A DNA stretch of 64,000 bases from an uncultured bacterium. Lineage in GTDB: Bacteria; RBG-13-61-14; CAYWKU01. The DNA lies in the NCBI GenBank assembly GCA_964459325.1, contig CAYWKU010000001.1:158040-222039 (forward strand), written 5' to 3'. This document shows positions 12,078 to 58,865 of this stretch, in pieces. Position 1 is the first letter of the stretch. Every line of letters starts with the position of its first letter. The notes below the pieces were generated by a model, which saw only the letters and a program-made list of their open reading frames with translations, had not been told where the DNA came from and made no database searches. The position numbers were made by a program, and so were the translations under genes.

Positions 12078-12149
12078 GATGAAGGCTTCTTTTCAATTTT
12101 CTTAAGTGTGGAGGGTCAGCTTTAAAGGCCGCTGCAGAATTGATTATGC

Positions 12150-12244
12150 CGTAACGCCCGGACGGGCAAATAGGGGTTGCTTAAAATCAAGCACTTACAA
12201 GATGCCACCGAGCCATACGGCCTGTCAGGGACGGTGGCGTTACG
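12150..12244. repeat. Repeat B copy 1 (CGTAACGCC...GGCGTTACG element, 95 bp) nested inside a longer inverted repeat (12127-12270)
   Basis: Shares the CGTAACGCCCGGACGGGCAAA 5' end, the CTTACAAG core and the GGCGTTACG 3' end with the copy at 20366-20441. Internal stem CCACCG/CGGTGG. Confidence 0.7.
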
Positions 12245-12449
12245 TTCTTTATATTCTGCAACGGCCTCTGGTCCTTTAAATCCCGGTTTTCTCAGCGGCA
12301 GTTGTCAACATGTGCATAATTCGCGACGGTTAATTATGAGATAATAGCACCCTAATGCGATTTTAAGCATCTTACTTATGTTATTGTCCGTTGACGGAAC
12401 GGTGATGCGTTAATAAGTTTATTTTAAACGCTTTTTGGGGAGTTGAATA

Positions 12450-12920
12450 ATGTCGGAGGTACGAAAGAGGCTTGAGTCTATGGGGATTGAGTTACCGGAG
12501 ATGAGCGCTCCGGTGGCTTCATACGCCCCGTATGCCGTGGTCGGCAATATGGTATTTATAAGCGGAGTGCTTCCGTTCAAGGAGGGGAAATTGCTCCATA
12601 TCGGAAAAGTAGGGGCAAGGGCAGGGGATGCCGTTTCCTTCGAGCAGGCTCAATCCGCCGCCCGCCAATGTACGATAAACGCGCTCGCTTCGCTGGAAGC
12701 TGCCGTCGGGGACCTGGATAAGGTCAAGCGCATAGTCCGGCTGGAGGGGTACGTGGCTTCGGAGCCGGGGTTCACCGACCAGCACAAGGTCATGAACGCC
12801 GCAAGTGAGCTTGTGGCCGGGGTTTTCGGGGAAAAGGGGGTGCATTCCCGGATAGCGGTCGGGGTGGCCGCGCTTCCGTTGGGCGCTCCCGTGGAGATTG
12901 CCGTAATTGCCGAAATCTGA
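12450..12920 (+). CDS. ridA: RidA/YjgF family enamine-imine deaminase
   Basis: 156 aa with a typical YjgF fold sequence (VFISGVLPF...RIAVGVAALPLGAPVEIAVIA). Confidence 0.7.
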   Translation: MSEVRKRLESMGIELPEMSAPVASYAPYAVVGNMVFISGVLPFKEGKLLHIGKVGARAGDAVSFEQAQSAARQCTINALASLEAAVGDLDKVKRIVRLEGYVASEPGFTDQHKVMNAASELVAGVFGEKGVHSRIAVGVAALPLGAPVEIAVIAEI

Positions 12921-13024
12921 ATGAAATTTTACCGAATTCTTTACATTCAGTATTTATATTGAAGAATCGGTAAGTATTGTGTATGATATTGAGGAGTCCT
13001 CGTGTGAGTTCCAGTATAGAAAAA

Positions 13025-14164
13025 ATGAATAAAGAATTTGATGTTATGGAGATGTATTCGTCCGAATTCAAGGAAAAATGCGAGGCCGTCGCAAGCGCAC
13101 CCGGCAGGGTAAATCTTATCGGGGAACATACCGACTACAACAAGGGTTTTGTCCTCCCCATGGCGGTGGAGCGGAGGGTATGGGCGGCGGGCAAGCCGGC
13201 TTCGGGTGATGTTGTCGAGGTGGCAAGCGCCGATATGCCGGGGCATTTCATGGCCGAAAAAGGGCTCAAACGCACCCGGACGTGGGCCGATTATCCCCTC
13301 GGGGTGATATGGGCGCTCAGGGAGGAAGGCTGGAAAATCCCGGGCGTGAAAATTTACTACCGGGGAAACGTGCCCCTCGGCGGGGGTCTGTCAAGCTCCG
13401 CGGCCATTGAGGTCGCTACCGCTCAACTGCTGAAGGGGCTTTTCAACCTGCCCATATCGGCCCGGCAAATGGCTCTGACCTGCCAGTTGGCCGAAAACCA
13501 GTTCGTGGGCATGAAATGCGGCGCCATGGACCAGATGGCCTCGGCTCTCGGAGAAAAGGACAGGGCACTGCATATCGATTGCAGGGACTTGAAATTCCAA
13601 ACGGTGCCGCTGAAAATCGACGACCACAAGGTGGTGATAATCAACAGCGGCGTTAAAAGAGAGCTTGCCGCAAGCGAGTACAACAAGCGCCGAAACGAAT
13701 GCGAAGAGGCCGCGAAAAAACTCGGGGTCAAAAGCCTGCGGCGTGTTTCATCAAAAGATATGGATAAAATCGAGGCCCTGCCGGAGCCTCTGAGCCGGCG
13801 CGCACGGCACGTGGTGACGGAAAATGAAAGGGTCGGGCGGGCCGTGGATTGCGTTTCCGGTGGCGACCTCGAGGAGTTCGGCGAACTGATGAACGCGAGC
13901 CACTCAAGCTTGAGGGACGATTATGAAGTCAGCGTCCCGGAGCTGGATTTCCTGGTGGATGAGTGCAATAAAGTCAAAGGGGTGCTGGGAGCGAGGCTTA
14001 CCGGAGCGGGCTTCGGAGGATGTATAGTAGTGCTGGCTCACAAGGACTCGATACCGACGATAGAAAAGAAAATCCTTGGCGGCTACAGGAAAAAGTTCCC
14101 GAGCGAGCCTTCCCTCATGACCACCAACCCGGCCGACGGGGCCAGGGTCGAAGAGTTGATGTGA
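13025..14164 (+). CDS. galK: galactokinase
   Basis: GHMP kinase motifs APGRVNLIGEHTDYNKGFVLPMA and PLGGGLSSSAA. Start chosen at MNKEF; the upstream in-frame codons are not conserved. Confidence 0.85.
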   Translation: MNKEFDVMEMYSSEFKEKCEAVASAPGRVNLIGEHTDYNKGFVLPMAVERRVWAAGKPASGDVVEVASADMPGHFMAEKGLKRTRTWADYPLGVIWALREEGWKIPGVKIYYRGNVPLGGGLSSSAAIEVATAQLLKGLFNLPISARQMALTCQLAENQFVGMKCGAMDQMASALGEKDRALHIDCRDLKFQTVPLKIDDHKVVIINSGVKRELAASEYNKRRNECEEAAKKLGVKSLRRVSSKDMDKIEALPEPLSRRARHVVTENERVGRAVDCVSGGDLEEFGELMNASHSSLRDDYEVSVPELDFLVDECNKVKGVLGARLTGAGFGGCIVVLAHKDSIPTIEKKILGGYRKKFPSEPSLMTTNPADGARVEELM

Positions 14165-14182
14165 AGGGGAGCGTTGTCCCCG

Positions 14183-14200
14183 CCTACTGCTGCCTACCCC
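14183..14200. repeat. left direct repeat (CCTACTGCTGCCTACCCC) flanking the cassette island
   Basis: Matches 16089-16106 (CCTTACTGCTGTCTACCC), which forms the 3' end of the CDS 16091-16669. Confidence 0.6.
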
Positions 14201-14201
14201 C

Positions 14202-14317
14202 GGGTGGCCCGGACGTTATACGTCCGGGTTGTCCGGCAGGACAACAAGAAATAATGATGTACTAAGTCCGAGGGTATCAAATTTCCGACCCTACACGGGT
14301 GTTTACCCGTGCCATCC
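14202..14317. repeat. Repeat A copy 1 (GGGTGGC - hairpin ... hairpin - GCCATCC)
   Basis: Perfect palindrome CCCGGACGT-TAT-ACGTCCGGG at 14208-14228; terminal hairpin CACGGGTGTTTACCCGTG. Confidence 0.7.
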
Positions 14318-14445
14318 TAATGGTATCCAAACATCACAGAGCTGACATTCTGTTTAACGGATTTGCTCTTGACAATCATTCTTGTGCTGTGATAAGTTCA
14401 CAAAAATTTAAATAAAGAACAGATAGCCGCCAATAGGAGGGGGAA

Positions 14446-14676
14446 ATGAAAGAAATAAAAGTTATATTGAGCTTTCTGCTAATCTTGGCTATTTGTGGTT
14501 GCGCTTCCAAGGCTTATCAATCCGCCAGAAACAAAGACACGGTGGAAGCCTATAAAGAATTCCTCGAAAAATATCCCGACTCAAAGTTTACCTCAGAAGC
14601 AAAAGCCAGACGTGAAGAACTATACTTTCAAAAACCCTATGGGAAAGGGAACTATTGTAATTGCCAAAAATTTTAG
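14446..14676 (+). CDS. small lipoprotein with TPR-like motif (possibly the N-terminal part of a frameshifted gene)
   Basis: Signal peptide plus lipobox LAICGC. AYKEFLEKYPDSKFTSEAKA resembles a YbgF/CpoB-type TPR. Ends in an A5T4 homopolymer tract. Confidence 0.4.
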   Translation: MKEIKVILSFLLILAICGCASKAYQSARNKDTVEAYKEFLEKYPDSKFTSEAKARREELYFQKPYGKGNYCNCQKF

Positions 14677-15088
14677 CTTAAACAAAGTGAATTTTGGTTT
14701 TCCGTATCATGGATATCAAAGAGCTGAACTTTGGTTAAGGAATCACCCAAGATGGGGAACAGATGTTATGCTGCTCGTAAAAAGAGGTCAATATGATTGT
14801 GACATAATAAATGGATGTTCGTTGGCGGTTCGGTTTGATGAGGAAAATATATGGTGGTGTGAAGCACAGCAGCCGAAATCGGGAAGTAGTAATGTTTTAT
14901 TTTTGTCTCGGCCTGTTGCCTTCCTTTCAAGCCTACCGGCCCATAAAAAACTGCGTATTGAAGCCGCTTTCTATCAAGAAGGAAATCGTACTTTCGAATT
15001 TAATATACATGGTTTTGACCTATTCCGGTTGTGCTTGGGGGAAAAGAACGCTCAGCTCGTAAGGGAGCTTATTATAGACAAAAAGTAG
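14495..15088 (+). CDS. hypothetical protein (a +1 frame relative to 14446-14676; possibly the downstream part of the same gene)
   Basis: 197-aa ORF with AT-rich codon usage and no family recognised. Overlaps the lipoprotein ORF. Confidence 0.35.
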   Translation: MVALPRLINPPETKTRWKPIKNSSKNIPTQSLPQKQKPDVKNYTFKNPMGKGTIVIAKNFSLNKVNFGFPYHGYQRAELWLRNHPRWGTDVMLLVKRGQYDCDIINGCSLAVRFDEENIWWCEAQQPKSGSSNVLFLSRPVAFLSSLPAHKKLRIEAAFYQEGNRTFEFNIHGFDLFRLCLGEKNAQLVRELIIDKK

Positions 15089-15097
15089 GCGAGGGCG

Positions 15098-15250
15098 GGG
15101 TGGCCCGGACGTTATACGTCCGGGTCCGAAGGACAAGAAACGTTGCAGACAACCGGGGGTTTCTCAACGACCTTCCTCTAAGCTTGAAACTACGGTGGAG
15201 ATGTTTCTTGTTGCAGGCGCAACACAGACGCAGTGGCGTCTGTGCCACCC
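15098..15250. repeat. Repeat A copy 2 (153 bp)
   Basis: GGGTGGC + CCCGGACGTTATACGTCCGGG + TCCGAAGG ... TTTCTTGTTGCAGGCGCAAC + hairpin CAGACGCAGTGGCGTCTG + GCCACCC. Confidence 0.7.
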
Positions 15251-15342
15251 GCCCAAGCGGAGATTTGTTGCAGTTTGCAGCATAACAACAACAGTTAATC
15301 TAAAATATTTGAGTGTTTCTGCAAAACGGTAAGGAGGAATTT

Positions 15343-15891
15343 ATGAGTATTCCATTGGATATAGTTAGATTTTTATTTGATATTATAAAAAATCATTACC
15401 ATAAACCCAAATTGGAGTTGGAAGGGGATGAAGCAGCCACTGGCTCCAAAGTTTATGCGCACGTTGTCAAGGTAAGAAACAAAGGCAGAAGTATTGCGAA
15501 AAATTGTGTGGGGGAACTTACGATAGATATATATAAAAATGATATTGCACATATCCCTCAAAATGTTTTAAATGCCAATGGCTATTGTATTCATCAGAAC
15601 AATTTTAGAGCGATAAAAGATGAGGGATTATGCTGGTCTTTCGGCAATAATCCTGACAAAATAATGATAAATCCGCGTACCTATAAGAAACTTGATTTTT
15701 ATCAAGTATATATTGGTAGCCGAGAAATTGATATCCCGAGCGAAAAGGGATTTAAAAAAAAGAGGGTAAAACTGAAGCCCAAGGACTACATGGGTACAAT
15801 AACGGTAAGCGCTGAAAATGCAGAGCCAGTTACAAGAAGCTTCAAAATGATAGTTAAGAAAAACGATGTAGACTATGAATGGATAGATTGA
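15343..15891 (+). CDS. hypothetical protein (cassette ORF, low GC)
   Basis: Strong RBS AAGGAGG 6 nt upstream of the ATG at 15343. Lys/Asn/Ile-rich composition unlike neighbouring genes. Confidence 0.5.
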   Translation: MSIPLDIVRFLFDIIKNHYHKPKLELEGDEAATGSKVYAHVVKVRNKGRSIAKNCVGELTIDIYKNDIAHIPQNVLNANGYCIHQNNFRAIKDEGLCWSFGNNPDKIMINPRTYKKLDFYQVYIGSREIDIPSEKGFKKKRVKLKPKDYMGTITVSAENAEPVTRSFKMIVKKNDVDYEWID

Positions 15892-15907
15892 GCAGATTGA
15901 TAATGGT

Positions 15908-16049
15908 GGGTGGCACGGACAGTATTGTCCGTGTTCCGAAGGGGCAAGAGGATTAATCGTATTGTGTGAGGGGAAGGCGGGGACTCGTCAGCGCCGATAA
16001 TTAGGGAAAAAGATTTCTTGTTGCTTGCGCAACCCGGACGTATAACGTC
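15908..16049. repeat. Repeat A copy 3 (142 bp) with a diverged left hairpin and an inverted right-end palindrome
   Basis: GGGTGGC + CACGGACA-GTAT-TGTCCGTG + TTCCGAAGG ... TTTCTTGTTGCTTGCGCAAC + CCCGGACGTATAACGTCCGGG + GCCACCC. The right end is the exact reverse complement of the copy 1 left end (27 bp). Confidence 0.75.
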
Positions 16050-16090
16050 CGGGCCACCCTGGGCGTTTTATTGTGGTATTTGTACCCCCC

Positions 16091-16669
16091 TTACTGCTGT
16101 CTACCCTCTATCCCGGTTATAAGTACCGACGAGGCTATTGCGAGCCGGCGGTCGAAGAGGTTCTGCATGTCCTGTGAGAAGTCGAGGTTGAGTTTGAGGA
16201 CGAAGGGGTTGAAGTTCTGCTTGAATACGGCCACCGGCCGGGAGTTAATCGTGACCTGGAACTTTTGAGGTATCAGGTTGCTCAAAAACCGCCTGAGAAG
16301 TGCGAGGAACAGGCTGTCTTCGACGATTTTCCCTACTTCCCGGTCATTGTTGTCCAGTATGAGCCATTCGTCCCGGAAGATGGCTTTCAGGCCGCTTCTT
16401 CTCAATGCGCCGACTTTTTCTCCGGTGGTGTTGTCCACCACGTCGTAAGTGGCGGAGATGTCAAGCATTTTGCGCGCCTTTATGGAGAGTATCCGCTCCT
16501 GCTTGCTCTTGTCTCCGAACACCCCGATGTCTTCCTTAAGCTTGAAAGCCTTCAACTCCGAGAAAAACACCAGGTTGCCCTGCGGGTCGTAAATGTGGTA
16601 CGAGCCGCCGAAGATTTTGAATATGGTCCTTCTGACCATGTAGTGGGAATGCCGGAACCTTTCATCCAT
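16091..16669 (-). CDS. hypothetical protein (possible LURP1/Tubby-like fold, DUF567-like)
   Basis: 192 aa; weak resemblance (FKIFGGSYHIYDPQGNLVF). Its last 6 codons lie inside the right direct repeat. Confidence 0.35.
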   Translation of the reverse strand: MDERFRHSHYMVRRTIFKIFGGSYHIYDPQGNLVFFSELKAFKLKEDIGVFGDKSKQERILSIKARKMLDISATYDVVDNTTGEKVGALRRSGLKAIFRDEWLILDNNDREVGKIVEDSLFLALLRRFLSNLIPQKFQVTINSRPVAVFKQNFNPFVLKLNLDFSQDMQNLFDRRLAIASSVLITGIEGRQQ

Positions 16670-17001
16670 TTTCAGCTCCTTTCAATAACCCAATAGTAAT
16701 CGCCCGGTTTTGGTATATGGCCCTTATATCTCAAGGCGGTACTAAAAATACCGCATTCTGGAATTGACATTTTCGGCAAGACAGTAAGCGCACCGGATTG
16801 AAATTAAACACGTGGCGGTACGGATATTTTTTATTTTATGTAACTCTTCCAGGGTTTTATTAAAACCAAACCACCCGGCATTATGATAATTATGGGAACA
16901 CATGAAAATAATTGTTTGTTACTCTACTGCTTATAATTGCCAGAAATCAGTAGACTTTCCGGCATATTGTAAAATTCCATAAGCGTCATCTTTAACCATA
17001 T

Positions 17002-17778
17002 TTATCGCCCATCGACGTAATTCCGGCTCCCATTCAATATTTTTTTTGTCGGGAGAGGAGTGCTTAGATGATGCTTAATCTTATTTTTTATATTTTTTGG
17101 GATAATTGGTTTAATATAATTAATAATTTTTATTCTTTTTAACTTGCGCAAGGAACTAGTAGATTGCCTCCTGCCATCCGATGCATTCTTACGCTTAAAA
17201 ATGTCGGTAAAGTTAAATTCATAATCAACATTTAAAAAACGACAAATATCCGATAATACTGCATGAGGGGCTGCTATAAAATCTTCAAAGAATAGGATTT
17301 TAATTTGTTCATCGGTAAAGTATTTCCTATATTCTGAAATTATATTATAATAAAGACATGATTGAATTAATGATTTGTATTCCGTTACAGCTTTTGAAAA
17401 AACTTTAGGCATTTGTGAATATCCTACAGTTGTGTTTCTAAAATTATGTAAGAAACTGGACTCAATCTTATCAAGTGGATGCCTGACTATGTAAATTAAT
17501 TTCGCATTTGGAAGGTCATTCTTCAATCTTTGTGCAGCCTTTGAATAATACTGTCCAGTGTAACATGTAGATGCGTCGCCTATACATATTTCATTAGAAT
17601 GGTGTTTAAAAAATGATTCGTACCAACTCCATCCCTTGCTGTAATTATAGTCCCTTGAGAAAAAATTTGGCTCTTTTGGCTTGGACATACATACATCGGG
17701 ATGTTGTTGTAATAGACTCCAAATGCTGGTAGTCCCGGCTTTTGCGGCACCTATTATCAAAAAATTTGGCTTTATCAT
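17002..17778 (-). CDS. sulfotransferase family protein
   Basis: PAPS-binding P-loop IIGAAKAGTTS followed by a sulfotransferase-like body. Low GC, AT-rich codons. Start placed at MIKPNF. Confidence 0.7.
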   Translation of the reverse strand: MIKPNFLIIGAAKAGTTSIWSLLQQHPDVCMSKPKEPNFFSRDYNYSKGWSWYESFFKHHSNEICIGDASTCYTGQYYSKAAQRLKNDLPNAKLIYIVRHPLDKIESSFLHNFRNTTVGYSQMPKVFSKAVTEYKSLIQSCLYYNIISEYRKYFTDEQIKILFFEDFIAAPHAVLSDICRFLNVDYEFNFTDIFKRKNASDGRRQSTSSLRKLKRIKIINYIKPIIPKNIKNKIKHHLSTPLPTKKILNGSRNYVDGR

Positions 17779-17895
17779 GGATAGAATTATAACACACATA
17801 GCATGAATTCAGCAAAAGCGAGTCTGGTACTGAAGTCTTTCTTTGAGGGGCTATACCTTATTACCCGTTGGTTGGTGGAAAATAATCGGTGTAGG

Positions 17896-18762
17896 TTATG
17901 GAGAAGACTTGAACTTTTCATCCAGCTCGTACTTTTCCTTAACGCTAATCATCCGGGTGAAATCGTCGAACGTCATCATCTTGTGCTGTATGTCGAAAGT
18001 GTACCCGTGCTCCGGCAGGTGCTCGTAAGTATCGGATAATGCTTTCGGCGCCGCAAACAGGCCTGAGAGGACGTAACCGACGCTGATGAATCCGAATTGG
18101 CGGACTTCTTCGAGTGGCAAGAGAGGCGTTTTGCCGCCCTCTATCATGTTCACCACCAGCGGCCCGGGCACTTCGGCGGCAATCCTTTTCATCACGTCCA
18201 CGCTCTTGGGAGCTTCGATGAAAATCAGGTTCGCTCCCGCTTCCTTGTAGGCGTTGCCTCAGCGGATGGCTTCGTCCAGCCCAAGCGGCTCGCGGCCGTC
18301 TGTGCGGGCGGTGATGGCGACCTGAGCGTCCCCCTTTGCCTCGACGGCGGCCCGTATTTTGGCGATGTGCTCTTCGGCGGGAACCACCGATTTGCCGCGC
18401 ATGTGGCCGCACCTTTTGGGCCAGGTCTGGTCTTCGAGTAGCACGCCCCTCACGCCCATCCGTATAGCTTCTTTGACCATGCGCATAACGTTGAGTGCGC
18501 CGCCGTAGCCGGTGTCGCCGTCCATTACCACCGGGATGTTTACCGCGTTCACCACCCTCCAGGCGGTATCGAGTATTTGCGTCTGGGACATTATGCCGAA
18601 CTCCCGTTCTCCAAGCAGGGAGGCGGCCACTCCGAAGCCGGTCAGCACTACCGACCTGAACCCCGCCCGCTCGGCCAGTTTTGCGCTCAGGGCATCGTAA
18701 ACCCCCGCCACCAGGATAACCTGGTTGTCGCGCACCAAGGGGTGCATTTTCGGCTCAGTCAT
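17896..18762 (-). pseudogene. isocitrate lyase/PEP mutase family (2-methylisocitrate lyase PrpB-like) gene interrupted by an in-frame TGA
   Basis: N-terminal part 18259-18762 and C-terminal part 17896-18201 are in the same frame. A TGA at 18259-18261 sits where PrpB has AIERAQAYVEAGAD (here AIR*GNAYKEAGAN). Confidence 0.65.
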
Positions 18763-18862
18763 CGATTTTCTCCTTCTTTAACCGTCGCTTTACTTTCGGC
18801 CAAGCATATTTTAATTTTCAATGTAACATAAAAGGCACAAAAAATCAGGAGGAAAATAGCGT

Positions 18863-20104
18863 ATGCGGGACGTTTATATTATCGGTGTGGGCATGATTCG
18901 TTTCGGCAAGTACCTGGAGCGGAACATGAAATCGCTGGCCGGGGATGCCGTCGACGCGGCCTTGGAGCATGCCGGCGTGGAGAAAAAGGATATTCAGGTG
19001 GCCGCGGTGGGGAACGCTTACCAGGGTCTGGTGACCGGGCAGGAGTCCATCCGCGGGCAGGTGGTGTTGAGGAGCATGGGGATAGGCGACATCCCGGTCA
19101 CAAACGTGGAAAACGCCTGCGCCTCCAGCTCCACCGCAATGCAGGTGACGTGGATGGACATCGCCCTGGGCCTTCACGACGTCGGCCTGGCTTTGGGGAT
19201 GGAAAAGATGTACATGGAAGACCGCGAAAAGCGCCTGTCGCTGTTCGGCTCCTCCATGGACGTGGAAGTCATGGAAAAAGTTATGGAAATGATAAGAAAG
19301 GCCTCCGGCGGGGGCAAGGATAAATCCTCCGGGGACGACGACCCGAAGAAGCCGAAGAAGCGCTCGGCCTTCATGGACGTTTACGCGGCGGGCGCCAGAA
19401 GCTGGATGGAGCAGTACGGGCTTACACAGCGCCATTTCGCTATGGTGGCTTCCAAGAACCACACCAACGGCTCGCTGAACCCTTACTCGCAGTATCAGAA
19501 GCCCATGACGGTGGAGGATATTCTGGCCGAGCCGGAGGTTTCGTACCCTCTGACGCGGCCAATGTGCTCGCCCATCGGGGACGGCGCGGCGGCGGCCATT
19601 TTGTGCTCCGGCGATTTCCTGAAGAAAATCGGCGCCGAAAAGCCCGTAAAAATTCGTGCGATTACGCTGGGCAGCGGCATGGACAGGCCGCTCGAAGACC
19701 CGGATTTGGGGGTGAGGCTGTCGAAGAGGGCTTACGAGCAGGCGGGGGTCGGGCCGGAAGACGTCGACGTGGCGGAAGTGCACGACGCCAGCGCCTGGAG
19801 CGAGATACGGGCTTATCAGCAGATGGGATTCTGCGAAGAGGGCGAGGGCGGTAAGTTCATCGAAGAAGGCCATTCCTATATCGGGGGCAAGCTGCCGGTC
19901 AACCCCTCGGGCGGGCTGGAATCCAAGGGCCATCCGGTGGGGGCTACGGGAGTGGCGCAGGTTGCCGAGATTGTGTGGCAGCTACGGGGAGAGGCCGGCA
20001 AGCGGCAGGTGGACAACCCGAGGATTGGTATGACCGAAAACGGCGGAGGAAATATCGGAGTGGAAGAGGCCAGCATGGTGATAACCATTCTGGAGAAGGT
20101 TTAG
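18863..20104 (+). CDS. thiolase-domain protein (archaeal/SCP-x type acetyl-CoA acetyltransferase-like)
   Basis: IIGVGMIRFGK start, active-site Cys context NVENACASSSTAMQ and a C-terminal GATG motif. Confidence 0.75.
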   Translation: MRDVYIIGVGMIRFGKYLERNMKSLAGDAVDAALEHAGVEKKDIQVAAVGNAYQGLVTGQESIRGQVVLRSMGIGDIPVTNVENACASSSTAMQVTWMDIALGLHDVGLALGMEKMYMEDREKRLSLFGSSMDVEVMEKVMEMIRKASGGGKDKSSGDDDPKKPKKRSAFMDVYAAGARSWMEQYGLTQRHFAMVASKNHTNGSLNPYSQYQKPMTVEDILAEPEVSYPLTRPMCSPIGDGAAAAILCSGDFLKKIGAEKPVKIRAITLGSGMDRPLEDPDLGVRLSKRAYEQAGVGPEDVDVAEVHDASAWSEIRAYQQMGFCEEGEGGKFIEEGHSYIGGKLPVNPSGGLESKGHPVGATGVAQVAEIVWQLRGEAGKRQVDNPRIGMTENGGGNIGVEEASMVITILEKV

Positions 20105-20221
20105 CCTGCCCCTTAAAATAGATTATGAGAGAGACTAATAGAGGCCGTTGCAAAACAGGCTTCAGGGGGAGAAAAGGCTTTTTTTCTGTAGCTTCCCGAG
20201 AATGTCTTTTCCAGACAAGGG

Positions 20222-20270
20222 GTTTTAACCCCTTGAAATTCAAGGGGCTGAAGCCCCTTGTCCATTCGAG
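20222..20270. repeat. Repeat C copy 1 (GACAAGGGG..CCCCTTGTC palindromic element, two nested hairpins)
   Basis: GACAAGGGGTTTTAACCCCTTG + CAAGGGGCTGAAGCCCCTTGTC, between convergent genes. Confidence 0.6.
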
Positions 20271-20365
20271 GTTCTTTTTCGGCGCGATGAAGGTCGACAC
20301 ATCCCAAACGAAAAAACATAATTCTGCAACAGCCTCTATCAGGGTGTTGAAAAATGCTATTTTTC

Positions 20366-20441
20366 GTAACGCCCGGACGGGCAAAAGGCGCCTTAATAAA
20401 ATCAGCTACTTACAAGTGCCGCCAAGGATGGCGGCGTTACG
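20366..20441. repeat. Repeat B copy 2 (76 bp) nested in the inverted repeat GGGTGTTGAAAAATG...CTTTTTCAACACCC (20342-20463)
   Basis: Same termini and CTTACAAG core as copy 1. The internal stem is GCCGCC/GGCGGC instead of CCACCG/CGGTGG, which is a compensatory change. Confidence 0.7.
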
Positions 20442-20453
20442 TTTCTGACTTTT

Positions 20454-21797
20454 TCAACACCCTGTTAGGGGCACGGCTTCCAGGTCGTAAACGAAGGCGT
20501 CGGTAATTTCGACGGTAAGTCTTTCCCCCGGTTCAAAGTAGTTGTCCGGCAAGTAAATTTCCCCGTCCACTTCCGGAGCGTGGAACACGGAGCGGGCCGC
20601 AATCCGGCCTTCGGCCTCTTCGGAAGGCCCGTCCACCAGCGCCTCGACTCTCTTGCCTACCCAGTCCCGGTTTATTTCCCAGCTTATCTCTTGTTGGAGC
20701 CTCATAATTATGTCGAGTCTTTCGGCTTTTATCCTTTCGGGCACTTGTCCCGGCATGTTGTAAGCGGGAGTGTTTTCTTCCCTGGAGTAAGCGAACGCCC
20801 CCAGCCGCTCCAGCCTCCGGGTGCGCACGAAATCCGCGAGTTGCTCGAATTCGCTTTCGGTTTCACCGGGAAATCCCACCATGACCGTAGTCCTGATGAC
20901 GGCGCCGGGGATTATTCGCCTGATTGTATTTATCGTGTTTTCGAGTTCAACTCGCGAGCCCGGCCTTCCCATTCTTTTAAGCACCGAATCTGCGGCGTGT
21001 TGAACGGGGATATCCACGTAAGGGCAAATGTTCGGGAAGGAGGCGATAGTTTCCAACACATCCTCCTTCAGGTGAGCCGGATGAGAATACATGACCCGTA
21101 TCCATGTGTCGGGTAAGGCGTTTGCCGTTTTTTTCAGCAGGTGCGCCAGTTTTTGTTTTCCATAACGGTCGATGCCGTACATTGCAGTGTCCTGACCGAC
21201 CAGGACTATCTCTTTTGCTCCCATCTCGACCATTTCGGTGGCCTCGGCTATGATGTGGGAGGTGGGTCGGGAGCGGAAGTCGCCTTTTATGGCGGGAATT
21301 GTGCAGTATGCGCAACGATTTTTGCATCCTTCGCTTATTTTTACATAAGAAAACGGTTCGTCCCCCAGACTGCGCCGGGGTTCCTTTCGGGGGAGAAAGC
21401 CTTTTCGGGGCGGTAAAGTGAATCTCCTCTTGTGTTGCAGCGCATTCTCTATTATTCGAGGTAGTTTGCGATAATCGGTGGCCGAAACCCATGCGTCTAC
21501 CCCGGGAAGGGCTTCGCCGATGTCTGTTTCCCCGCGATGCCTTTCGGGCATGCAGCCCGCCACCACCAGGGCTTTAACCTCCCCCCCGTATTTGTGCTCC
21601 TGGAGTTCCACCAGGGTTTCCGCGCTTTCCTCCTCTGCGTCGCGCACAAAGGCGCAGGTAAACAGAAGGGCGACATCGGCGGGGCCGTCGGAGTCGACTA
21701 TGCCGTAGCCTTCCTTTTCCAGCAGGCCGGCTACGGTTTCGGCGTCCGCGCGGTTCTTGGCGCATCCGAGGATGAGAATTTTTACGCTTGCCGCCAT
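20454..21797 (-). CDS. rimO: ribosomal protein S12 methylthiotransferase (MiaB/RimO family radical SAM)
   Basis: N-terminal MTTase domain, radical SAM CKNRCAYC and a C-terminal TRAM-like domain. Confidence 0.8.
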   Translation of the reverse strand: MAASVKILILGCAKNRADAETVAGLLEKEGYGIVDSDGPADVALLFTCAFVRDAEEESAETLVELQEHKYGGEVKALVVAGCMPERHRGETDIGEALPGVDAWVSATDYRKLPRIIENALQHKRRFTLPPRKGFLPRKEPRRSLGDEPFSYVKISEGCKNRCAYCTIPAIKGDFRSRPTSHIIAEATEMVEMGAKEIVLVGQDTAMYGIDRYGKQKLAHLLKKTANALPDTWIRVMYSHPAHLKEDVLETIASFPNICPYVDIPVQHAADSVLKRMGRPGSRVELENTINTIRRIIPGAVIRTTVMVGFPGETESEFEQLADFVRTRRLERLGAFAYSREENTPAYNMPGQVPERIKAERLDIIMRLQQEISWEINRDWVGKRVEALVDGPSEEAEGRIAARSVFHAPEVDGEIYLPDNYFEPGERLTVEITDAFVYDLEAVPLTGC

Positions 21798-23720: not shown

Positions 23721-23789
23721 CCTTCGGAAAACACCTATACATAGCGAAATAAATTCATGCGTATGGAGCATCCGGAAACCGAGATTTTC

Positions 23790-23940
23790 CCCGGGCTGAA
23801 ACCCGGGGCTTAAATATACATTTGACTGCTTCCTGCACTGAAGTGCAGGGTTTCCGGTTCCCGGGAAACCCCGGCTTTTAAGCCGGGGAGTTTCACATTT
23901 ACCTTTAAGCCCCGGATTTTAATCCGGGGTGTTGTGCGCT
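23790..23940. repeat. cluster of five stem-loops; three share the CCCCGG-N8-CCGGGG form
   Basis: 23790-23809, 23845-23860, 23859-23882, 23880-23899 and 23921-23940, between convergent genes. Confidence 0.6.
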
Positions 23941-30484: not shown

Positions 30485-30558
30485 GGGTGGTTAGCTCAGC
30501 CAGGTAGAGCATCGGACTTTTAATCCGAGGGCCGAGGGTTCGAATCCCTCACCACCCA
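30485..30558 (+). tRNA. tRNA-Lys: tRNA-Lys (anticodon UUU)
   Basis: Cloverleaf with acceptor stem GGGTGGT/ACCACCC, D-arm TAGCTCAGCCAGGTAGAGCA, anticodon loop CTTTTAA and T-arm GGTTCGAATCC. Confidence 0.85.
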
Positions 30559-52282: not shown

Positions 52283-52306
52283 GACAAGGGGCTTAAGCCC
52301 CTTGTC
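52283..52306. repeat. Repeat C copy 2 (perfect 24-bp palindrome GACAAGGGGCTTAAGCCCCTTGTC)
   Basis: Identical core to the copies at 20222-20270 and 58682-58706. Confidence 0.7.
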
Positions 52307-52645
52307 TGTTCTCCTTGTGAAAAATGCTCATGCTCGAAACAGGGATATGCTGTCCAATTACAAAACCGTTTTTGGACAGGTATGACTTGCGTTGGGGTAT
52401 AATTTATGTGTTAACCGAATATAATACCAATAGTATTTAATCCTCTAAGTTATTGTTTTTATTCGGAGAAACAAAATTTCCGCGCCAATTCCCGGCAGAG
52501 ACGGAGTTTCTAATAATTAATGGGGAGGTGGCAAGGGAGGAAACCGGGGGAGGTCCGGCGGGTTTGTGTACCTTGTTCGGCGGTCACTGCCGTGCTAGCT
52601 TATTTTCGTTGCGAATCAGTGAAAAAACAGGTGGGAGTATAAAGA

Positions 52646-58681: not shown

Positions 58682-58706
58682 GACAAGGGGGCTTAAGCCC
58701 CTTATC
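58682..58706. repeat. Repeat C copy 3 (imperfect)
   Basis: GACAAGGGGGCTTAAGCCCCTTATC. Confidence 0.55.
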
Positions 58707-58865
58707 CCATTGCTCGCGCAGATACATTGGTGACAGAGAGAAGAAAAATTTCCTGTACCTTGCGCGGCAATTCGCGGTTAAATCCCATGCGCCCGATGTT
58801 TGACGCTCCCTCCGAAAGTGCAGGCATGTGGACTGCTCCGGGGCGAAGGATTATAATTAACTCCA

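Follow-up and report, generated by a model that had tools for sequence, protein, structure and literature searches.

Two copies of one small palindromic element, referred to below as A and B, are present in the same orientation in the 64-kb stretch of DNA that was analysed (the window), and they probably belong to a family, specific to this lineage, of small palindromic repeats that lie between genes, do not code for protein and are of the REP-doublet (REPIN/BIME) or MITE type, the family being an extrapolation from the two copies known, both intergenic, in 64 kb of the source genome. The first-pass annotation, which placed the start of copy B at 20366 instead of 20365, had offered three readings of the element, viz. 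a MITE/REP-like repeat, att-like boundaries of a larger island, and a small structured RNA. The MITE/REP-like reading is the best supported of the three, based on the architecture of the element, its intergenic sites, its absence from the corresponding spacer of a relative, and its nesting within longer palindromes. The parts of the two copies are as follows.

12150-12244, + strand: copy A (95 nt), in the divergent spacer between a gloB-like gene (start 12077, - strand) and ridA (start 12450, + strand); 90.1 bits
12150-12158: left terminal inverted repeat of A, CGTAACGCC, consisting of the tag CGTAAC and the foot of hairpin 1; pairs with GGCGTTACG at 12236-12244
12156-12167: hairpin 1 of A, GCCC-GGAC-GGGC; same sequence in B at 20371-20382
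12185-12197, + strand: IHF-consensus match of A, AATCAAGCACTTA against WATCARNNNNTTR, behind an A/T-rich run; distance to the left terminal repeat 26 nt
12204-12238: hairpin 2 of A, GCCACCG, a 21-nt loop and CGGTGGC
20365-20441, + strand: copy B (77 nt), in the convergent spacer between a thiolase gene (ends 20104) and rimO (- strand, stop codon 20454-20456); 100.2 bits
20365-20373: left terminal inverted repeat of B, CGTAACGCC; pairs with GGCGTTACG at 20433-20441
20400-20412, + strand: IHF-consensus match of B, AATCAGCTACTTA against WATCARNNNNTTR; distance to the left terminal repeat likewise 26 nt
20418-20435: hairpin 2 of B, GCCGCCA-AGGA-TGGCGGC, which differs from A at two stem positions on both sides

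In each copy the parts follow the same order, viz. CGTAAC, hairpin 1, a 36-nt spacer, a hairpin 2 that is unlike hairpin 1, and GTTACG, so that both copies have a conserved centre, rich in A/T, between two GC hairpins, and the 9-bp terminal inverted repeats reported earlier (CGTAACGCC/GGCGTTACG) are common to both of them. The 5' block, the 21-mer CGTAACGCCCGGACGGGCAAA, is identical in A and B and it occurs at exactly two sites in the window when up to three mismatches are allowed (0 expected); the other blocks in common are AAAATCA, ACTTACAAG and GGCGTTACGTT. When the window is compared with itself by BLAST, A pairs with B (E=4.5e-6), and a covariance model built from the two copies scores 90 and 100 bits on these copies and 15 bits on the next independent site. 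Both copies are intergenic, the sequences flanking them are unrelated, and no consistent target-site duplication is seen at either one (flanks GC/TT for A and TT/TT for B).

The conserved spacer contains, at the same offset in both copies, a match to the IHF consensus WATCARNNNNTTR (taken from PMC9820253). The three differences between AATCAAGCACTTA and AATCAGCTACTTA all fall at degenerate positions of this consensus, which is matched 9 times in the window where 3.7 matches are expected, a number reached in none of 100 shuffles. By analogy with the L linker of the E. coli BIME-1 and the core of the Neisseria Correia elements, the spacer may bind an IHF-like DNA-bending protein, although this is a consensus match only and the IHF of the host may differ in specificity.

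Further, the longer inverted repeat that had been described around each copy is real in both cases, and its arms, together with a related pair nearby, are as follows.

12124-12140, - strand: motif X, the left outer arm of A, reading AAAGGCCGCTGCAGAAT on the + strand; its partner X', ATTCTGCAACGGCCTCT, is at 12253-12269
12253-12269, + strand: motif X', the right outer arm of A, ATTCTGCAACGGCCTCT; its counterpart in the orthologous spacer of the relative is GTCAATCGCCTCT
20135-20342: second X...X' pair, arms 20135-20155 and 20322-20342, around a different insert of 166 nt
20332-20354: left outer arm of B, GCCTCTATCAGGGTGTTGAAAAA, overlapping the end of the second X' copy (20321-20337)
20450-20472: right outer arm of B, TTTTTCAACACCCTGTTAGGGGC, including the 3' end of rimO (its final six codons and the stop)

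The outer inverted repeat of A (12127-12140/12253-12266) is complementary at 13 of 14 bases and that of B (20332-20354/20450-20472) over 23 nt at 91%, and each copy is placed centrally in a 17-18-nt loop of its outer stem (14 bp for A, 23 bp for B). The second X...X' pair, whose 166-nt insert carries two CAAGGGG..CCCCTTG hairpins, demonstrates that X/X' constitutes a separate palindromic module which is itself repeated.

The nature of the DNA lying between the two copies is clarified by a related metagenomic genome, L090, whose proteins are 62-77% identical to those of the window. Between the copies lie ridA, galK, two orphan ORFs, a LOR-like gene, a sulfotransferase gene, a thiolase gene and a prpB-like gene interrupted by a single in-frame TGA, in agreement with the gene content given earlier. 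However, the earlier description of an 8.2-kb accessory patch with a copy at either end is not supported, as L090 has the genes PPDK-gloB-ridA-galK-LOR-prpB in the same order as the window, and most of the supposed patch is therefore conserved chromosome. The extra DNA of low GC content is limited to 14.2-16.1 kb and 17.0-17.8 kb (the sulfotransferase gene, 30% GC), well inside the bracket, and these segments have their own junctions, including a direct repeat of 19-20 nt at 14181/16088. Copy A is absent from the gloB-ridA spacer of L090, and when its 95 nt are left out, the window spacer (277 nt) aligns from end to end with that of L090 (264 nt), the anchors common to both being TCTTTTCAATTTT, TTGATTATG and CAAnnGCCTCT; this comparison with an 'empty site' rests on short anchors and on a distant relative.

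If A and B were the attL and attR of an 8.2-kb island that had integrated site-specifically, then their direct orientation, the perfect identity of the 21-nt block and the low-GC DNA between them would all be accounted for. However, ridA, galK, LOR and prpB lie between the copies and are nevertheless syntenic with PPDK-gloB in L090, the low-GC segments are internal and separately bounded, and none of the 56 ORFs of the 64-kb window encodes an integrase, recombinase, transposase, RAYT or Y1_Tnp domain. Further, both copies are complete palindromic elements that are similar on both sides of the identical block, whereas an att core has unrelated arms. The island-boundary reading is already largely refuted by the synteny, and we regard site-specific integration as very improbable; the direct orientation of A and B at a distance of 8.2 kb would then be a coincidence. 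Even less credence can be given to the suggestion that A and B are integron attC sites, or an attC cluster lacking its integrase, related to the adjacent cassette-like ORFs. The ends of the element (...TAAC at 5' and GTTA... at 3', in R''/R' order), its size of 77-95 nt, which fits the attC range, a centre that varies while its pairing is kept, and the presence of cassette-like orphan ORFs with palindromes at 14.2-16.1 kb all recall such sites, but CCGTAAC and TCGTAAC depart from RYYYAAC and GTTACGT from GTTRRRY. Beyond the 9-bp terminal stem the arms do not pair and instead form two hairpins and an unpaired centre of 36 nt, so that there is neither an L''/L' box nor one imperfect hairpin in which R and L boxes are combined. 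The copies are moreover separated by at least eight genes on both strands, which show no cassette organisation, and no IntI is encoded in the window.

Two further explanations remain. In one of them the element is a structured RNA, encoded as a small RNA gene or acting in cis within a UTR (e.g. as a 3' stabiliser or terminator for rimO, or a 5' leader near gloB or ridA), whose hairpins and closing stem are RNA helices. The predicted folds form a three-way junction with the 9-bp terminal stem, two separate hairpins and the unpaired 36-nt centre, whose sequence is conserved; the cores alone fold better as RNA than their shuffles (z = -2.5 to -2.7) and with the outer stems the values reach -3.6 to -7.3 (as DNA, -3.9 and -5.6). 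All 16 modelled pairs are standard in both copies, one or two of them being changed on both sides, and copy B is located directly 3' of rimO. The compensatory changes noted in the first-pass annotation do exist in the 3' hairpin (GCCACCG/CGGTGGC in A vs GCCGCCA/TGGCGGC in B; two pairs by eye, one in the MAFFT register), but they carry no statistical weight as covariation, since 270 of 500 shuffles do equally well when only two sequences are available. The Rfam/Infernal covariance-model search proposed at that time matched neither element to a family: in a scan of the window with Rfam 15 only a tRNA (30485-30558) passes the gathering threshold, and at E up to 10 the elements are overlapped only by noise (12.7-20.6 bits against thresholds of 34.7-81), the best sub-threshold matches in the spacer of B falling on the adjacent CAAGGGG hairpin pair and not on the element. 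There is no promoter-like site ahead of copy A, the sole such site near B (20294-20322) is outside the element, and terminator-like sites flank neither copy. For B, the wobbles and mismatches of the outer stem favour the + strand, and for A the - strand (C.A on +, G.T on -), a pattern that is more in keeping with a palindrome in DNA than with an RNA read from one particular strand. With two contexts so unlike each other (a divergent promoter region for A, a convergent 3' region for B), and with the element missing from the orthologous spacer and from the contigs of relatives that were searched (~70 kb of the 87 kb referred to below), we consider an RNA function unlikely.

The other explanation, to which we also assign a low probability, is that a regulatory or architectural protein-binding module (an IHF-type site with hairpins) was copied once by ordinary recombination or gene conversion, and is neither mobile nor part of a large family. 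In its favour are the number of known copies, which is only two, the constant offset of their protein-binding-like core, the lack of a transposase nearby and the absence of another copy from public collections. However, terminal inverted repeats, sharp boundaries and a position inside two different host palindromes typify insertion and not ectopic duplication, and a promoter region and a 3' end have no obvious regulatory logic in common. Concerning the number of copies, searches of the window, of 87 kb of contigs from relatives and from the same organism, and of public collections revealed no third one. The 21-mer CGTAACGCCCGGACGGGCAAA has no match in 596 Gb of genomes, in 241 million metagenome records or in viral contigs, and a gapped pattern combining the terminal repeats with the IHF core gave only two matches (~1.4 expected by chance, by our own estimate), neither of which has the hairpins of the element or the CTTACAAG block. 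Assemblies of the same organism from two sequencing runs break inside the elements or at their edge, as is expected if more copies or variants exist.

Based on the reading that we favour, that of a lineage-specific palindromic repeat, the element would have spread, or may still be spreading, as a non-autonomous unit. The mobilising enzyme would be encoded elsewhere in the genome and would most plausibly be a HUH/Y1 enzyme of the RAYT/IS200 type acting on single-stranded DNA; such an enzyme would recognise a tag with its hairpin and leave no target duplication, and its preferred landing sites may be extruded or single-stranded hairpin loops. There is a lesser chance, and in our view a small one, that A and B belong to a previously undescribed class of tagged palindromic repeats, or to a new class of structured RNA with the gene inside a larger hairpin. 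A repeat class of this kind would be marked by its (C)GTAAC tag, heterodimeric hairpins and built-in IHF-type bending site in a deep-branching uncultured lineage, and it would insert specifically, without target duplication, into the loops of existing chromosomal hairpins, mobilised by a so far unrecognised single-strand DNA enzyme.

These results correct the map of the region: the 8.2 kb that separate A from B do not form one accessory island but consist of conserved chromosome, into which two small segments with boundaries of their own have been inserted. They also provide, from bacteria of which few have been sampled, a lineage-specific case of a small palindromic repeat between genes, which is nested in host hairpins and has an IHF-like site. 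If counts across the genome were to establish a family whose tag is not GTAG and which prefers hairpin loops, it would modestly extend the known diversity and target choice of REPs and REPINs, while opening no new field.

Among known systems, the miniature elements derived from IS200/IS605, known as palindrome-associated transposable elements and linked to single-strand Y1/HUH transposition (PMC6006769, PMC3333891), share with the element a subterminal hairpin at either end and the lack of a target duplication, and single-stranded or hairpin DNA is a plausible preferred target in both cases. However, members of the IS200/IS605 family have no terminal inverted repeats and their insertion takes place 3' of a constant motif of four or five nucleotides, whereas our element has a 9-bp terminal inverted repeat and its two sites have no common left-flank motif, their bottom-strand flanks sharing AGAA only. 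The Neisseria Correia/NEMIS MITEs (PMC2229807, PMC2649163) are likewise intergenic, with terminal inverted repeats and a conserved core containing a functional IHF-binding site (in our element, a consensus match), and they are of comparable size (100-155 bp for Correia) and form a long hairpin when transcribed. In this case the differences lie in the 26-bp terminal repeats and TA target duplication of Correia elements, as against 9-bp repeats, no duplication and internal subterminal hairpins here; in terms of a MITE derived from a DDE transposase, the terminal repeats are thus present and a consistent target-site duplication is not. The BIME-1/RIB/RIP units of E. coli (Boccard & Prentki 1993, cited in PMC3733652; PMC3333891) are also ~100 bp long, consist of two different inverted REPs with a well-conserved linker carrying an IHF consensus (in our element, again, a consensus match), and are found singly and in many cases, like copy B, where a transcription unit ends. 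However, they have no sequence similarity to the element, and the E. coli IHF-binding dimers are tail-to-tail with their GTAG tags inside (PMC3733652), whereas the tags of the element are outside.

A further architectural parallel is with REP doublets or REPINs (PMC2817692, PMC3116915, PMC3733652). A REP is defined by a tetranucleotide tag with an imperfect palindrome, and an IHF site is known from the BIME-1 linker (PMC3333891); specifically, the palindrome is 20-40 nt long with the tag GTAG, or CGTC in a second superfamily, at its foot (PMC3333891, PMC3733652). Both halves of the element consist of a tag and a GC stem-loop, but the tag is CGTAAC (GTAA) and not the canonical GTAG or CGTC, so that the likeness is one of architecture only. 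The element also differs in its hairpin 1 of only 4 bp and in its host from a deep-branching uncultured lineage (the closest named homologue of its RimO is 45% identical). REPs commonly number tens to hundreds per genome, for the most part between genes, and a RAYT (Y1 HUH transposase) gene in the same genome is typically flanked by them; two copies and no RAYT gene were seen in the 64 kb of the window. On the other hand, REP dimers nested in longer palindromes, heterodimers, dimers with tags outside and conserved spacers, and families of 20-100 units have all been documented (PMC3733652). In REP nomenclature the element is a head-to-head heterodimer with tags outside: two tagged GC-rich stem-loops are inverted in the manner of an 'HH' dimer, the partners have different stems and loops, and the conserved 36-nt spacer is inside the reported range of 20-100 bp (PMC3733652). 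Like REP doublets it is intergenic and without target duplication, and it is nested in longer palindromes, as are the families of Anabaena, Thermomicrobium and Halothiobacillus (PMC3733652).

In the window, two palindromic elements are present on the same strand, as described in the first-pass annotation and confirmed here at the level of sequence. Copy A is located in the spacer between the gloB-like gene and ridA, and copy B in that between a thiolase gene and rimO:

Copy A: 12150-12244, + strand, 95 nt
Copy B: 20365-20441, + strand, 77 nt

The 21-mer CGTAACGCCCGGACGGGCAAA is identical in the two copies and occurs exactly twice in the 64 kb when up to 3 mismatches are allowed (0 expected), and the copies also have in common the blocks AAAATCA, ACTTACAAG and GGCGTTACGTT. 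In a self-BLAST of the window, copy A pairs with copy B at E=4.5e-6 and no third copy is found. The perfect 9-bp terminal inverted repeats (CGTAACGCC/GGCGTTACG) reported earlier are seen in both copies, where they form a closing stem. Each copy further has a 5' hairpin (GCCC-GGAC-GGGC) of the same sequence in A and B, an A/T-rich centre of 36 nt between the hairpins, and a 3' hairpin, which consists of GCCACCG, a 21-nt loop and CGGTGGC in copy A, and of GCCGCCA-AGGA-TGGCGGC in copy B. When read from either end, each half shows CGTAAC and then a GC stem-loop beginning with GCC. Between A and B, two positions of the 3' stem are changed on both of its sides, and to this extent the compensatory changes described earlier are present; however, with two sequences, and with 270 of 500 shuffles being equally good, these changes carry no statistical weight. 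A covariance model built from the two copies (R1), for which the long loop of copy A was trimmed to obtain the correct register, gave 100 and 90 bits on the two copies and 15 bits on the next independent site.

The centre of both copies contains a match to the 13-bp IHF consensus WATCARNNNNTTR (PMC9820253), exactly 26 nt from the left repeat:

IHF-consensus match in copy A: 12185, AATCAAGCACTTA
IHF-consensus match in copy B: 20400, AATCAGCTACTTA

The three differences between these sites are all at degenerate positions of the consensus. The entire window contains 9 matches to this consensus versus 3.7 expected, a number reached in 0 of 100 shuffles, and the left outer arm around copy B contains a third match of this kind (TATCAGGGTGTTG, 20337-20349). 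The conserved spacer would probably bind an IHF-like protein. A sigma-70 scan for a promoter in the conserved centre placed nothing inside the elements, and a sigma-54 reading was rejected by eye because the spacing was unfit.

Both copies are nested inside longer inverted repeats, in agreement with the earlier description. A 14-bp inverted repeat (12127-12140/12253-12266) surrounds copy A, which lies in its 17-nt loop, and copy B is found in the 18-nt loop of a 23-bp inverted repeat that is 91% complementary (20332-20354/20450-20472), whose right arm includes the stop codon and the last six codons of rimO. The outer arms of copy A are formed by a 17-nt motif, X (AGAGGCCGTTGCAGAAT), of which there are four copies in the window versus 0.19 expected. 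A second pair of X and its inverted partner (20135-20342) surrounds a different, 166-nt insert with two CAAGGGG..CCCCTTG hairpins, and due to this the convergent thiolase-rimO spacer can be described as a mosaic of palindromic modules. Separately, a GC hairpin (CAAGGGGCTTAAGCCCCTTG), probably of another REP-like or terminator-like family, occurs in three spacers (20214-20262, 52285-52311 and 58685-58711), once as a tandem inverted pair.

The nested structures are more stable than shuffles both as RNA (z -3.6 to -7.3) and as DNA (z -3.9 and -5.6), and the element may, as suggested earlier, have a role as a structured RNA. However, an Rfam covariance check gave no match at gathering thresholds or at E up to 10, and the mismatches in the outer stems show no consistent strand preference, the single mismatch around copy A reading C.A on + and G.T on -, and one mismatch around copy B T.G on + and A.C on -. 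This fits a DNA palindrome better than one transcribed RNA. The other interpretation, that the copies bracket an accessory island of about 8.2 kb or represent its att-like boundaries, can be examined by comparison with related genomes. The source of this DNA is an uncultured, deep-branching bacterium, for whose RimO one relative is found at 77% identity, a few at ~63%, and the closest named homologue at 45%. The 77% relative, from JGI sample 3300033141 (contig L002), shows synteny with the window on the right-hand side of rimO (TetR, methyltransferase, a 483-aa gene etc.). A search of metagenomes for related loci with the gloB-like protein yielded relatives of <=48% identity, which were useless for synteny, and the PPDK-like protein as query identified a further contig from the same sample (L090), whose PPDK-like protein is 62% identical to that of the window. 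In this contig, the genes for Dus, a sigma-54 regulator, Memo, FMN reductase, PPDK, gloB, ridA, galK, LOR and the prpB-like protein follow in the same order as in the window; at the position of the thiolase gene there is a 201-aa gene, after which the contig ends. Thus, ridA, galK, LOR and prpB, located between copies A and B, are part of the conserved chromosome. The extra DNA is internal to the bracket, viz. ~1.9 kb at 14200-16088 in place of a 120-nt galK-LOR spacer and ~1.2 kb carrying a 30%-GC sulfotransferase gene in place of a 140-nt LOR-prpB spacer, and no integrase, transposase or Y1/RAYT domain was found in the 56 ORFs of the window. Hence, the interpretation of the copies as island brackets or att sites is unsupported.

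Within the bracketed region, the ~1.9-kb 'cassette island' (14181-16108) carries composite palindromes (GGGTGGC-hairpin-...ACAAGAAA) in addition to orphan ORFs (14495-15088 and 15313-15891). A direct repeat of 19-20 nt lies on either side of it (GCCTACTGCTGCCTACCCCC, 14181; CCTTACTGCTGTCTACCCTC, 16088), and the copy at 16088 forms the 3' end of the LOR-like gene, including the stop codon. Based on this repeat and the 120-nt spacer in the related contig, the 'cassette island' represents a discrete insertion, accompanied by a duplicated target or an att-like sequence. The segment at 16670-17895, with the sulfotransferase gene (17002-17799, - strand, 30% GC), is a second, separate, recently acquired insertion. 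The prpB-like gene (17896-18762, - strand; PEP mutase/isocitrate lyase family) is of full length except for one in-frame TGA, located where the relative, in which this gene is intact, has Arg (DEAIR*G in the window vs DEAIRRG); the TGA seems to reflect either a nonsense mutation that is very recent, an error of sequencing, or recoding.

In contrast to the window, copy A is absent from the gloB-ridA spacer of the relative (264 nt). After removal of copy A, the spacer in the window is 277 nt long and aligns with that of the relative from end to end, with anchors to the left and right of the insertion point (TCTTTTCAATTTT, TTGATTATG, CAAnnGCCTCT and ridA-proximal blocks). The collinearity of these spacers points to either a clean gain of 95 nt in the lineage of the window or a precise loss in the other lineage. 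No target duplication is seen, the flanks being GC/TT for copy A and TT/TT for copy B.

In regard to wider distribution, the exact 21-mer had 0 matches in genome, metagenome and viral contig collections, from which the source genome is evidently absent. A gapped pattern of the terminal repeats and the IHF core (GTAACGCC-N(16-36)-AATCARNNNNTTA-N(10-40)-GGCGTTAC) had two matches in genome contigs, where by our own estimate about 1.4 are expected by chance; these, in a Flavobacterium MAG and a deltaproteobacterial MAG, were rejected, as neither has the hairpins or motifs of the element. BLASTN against plasmids and phages found nothing, and with R1 the window, ~70 kb of contigs from relatives and ~17 kb of contigs from the same organism (87 kb total for the contigs) gave no additional copy. 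In case spurious ORFs had been called on other copies, protein collections were searched with pseudo-peptides translated across the elements; one search was empty, and the other returned three tandem-repeat proteins, which are not homologues and owe their scores to the summing of weak repeats. An inverted repeat downstream of rimO in contig L002 (GAGCCGCAACG...CGTTACGGCTC) was rejected as a possible distant cousin: it folds no better than shuffled sequences (z -0.2, -1.7), cannot be aligned, and has no R1 match. If the density were uniform, a genome would have tens of copies, by extrapolation from two in 64 kb. In short-read (Logan) assemblies of this organism, contigs break inside the elements or at their edges, at 12163 (L091, ending 14 nt into copy A), 12225 (L008/L009, which come from two independent runs and start at this same base, 20 nt before the end of copy A), 20168 (L007) and 20441 (L001, ending at the outer edge of copy B). 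These breaks suggest, without proving, that there are other copies, or variants of the element's centre within the population.

This lineage appears to be rich in nested palindromic repeats. A 76-nt non-coding block (23736-23811 in the window, 151-226 in L090) is 92% identical between the two genomes, although their proteins are only 62-77% identical, and its positions in them are not orthologous. In each genome CCCCGGG...CCCGGGG hairpins come after it (composite palindrome at 23789-23929 in the window). The block may be a mobile module that is conserved, or a structured non-coding module. Copies of a ~290-nt MITE-like element, with terminal repeats GTGAAAATCCGGACTT and a nested inverted repeat GGGGGAGGGAAAAAGTTG, occur at or near the contig ends in L002 (11520-11810) and L090 (~240-470). 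The RimO of the relative (3' end of the gene at L002 11290-11299) is missing the final ~20 residues of its TRAM domain. It terminates with ...GDRFELYYS*, after which nested hairpins follow, and inserted palindromic DNA seems to have taken the place of the 3' end of this gene.

Of the possibilities raised in the first-pass annotation, a REP/MITE-like repeat is thus the best-supported reading. REPs consist of a tag and an imperfect palindrome and form inverted pairs with a linker; that of E. coli BIME-1 is a conserved one, often with an IHF site (PMC3333891). In dimers with the tags outside ('HH') the spacers tend to be conserved. Heterodimers are common, REP families can be as small as 20-100 units, and in several genomes the dimers lie inside longer palindromes (PMC3733652). 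The architecture of copies A and B fits this description of REP doublets. However, due to their tag, GTAA(C) rather than GTAG or CGTC, they fall outside the strict REP superfamilies, and the lack of target duplication similarly places them outside MITEs in the strict sense; an attC site was rejected because neither the consensus nor the fold agrees. The repeat was probably spread by an enzyme encoded elsewhere in the genome, for which the tag-plus-hairpin ends and the lack of target duplication would suggest an HUH/Y1-type single-strand mechanism. Terminal repeats and a functional IHF site are likewise found together in MITEs such as the Correia elements (PMC2229807, PMC2649163). Based on these parallels with REP doublets and MITEs, copies A and B are read as a lineage-specific small palindromic repeat, which adds to the known repeats of the REP/MITE-like kind.
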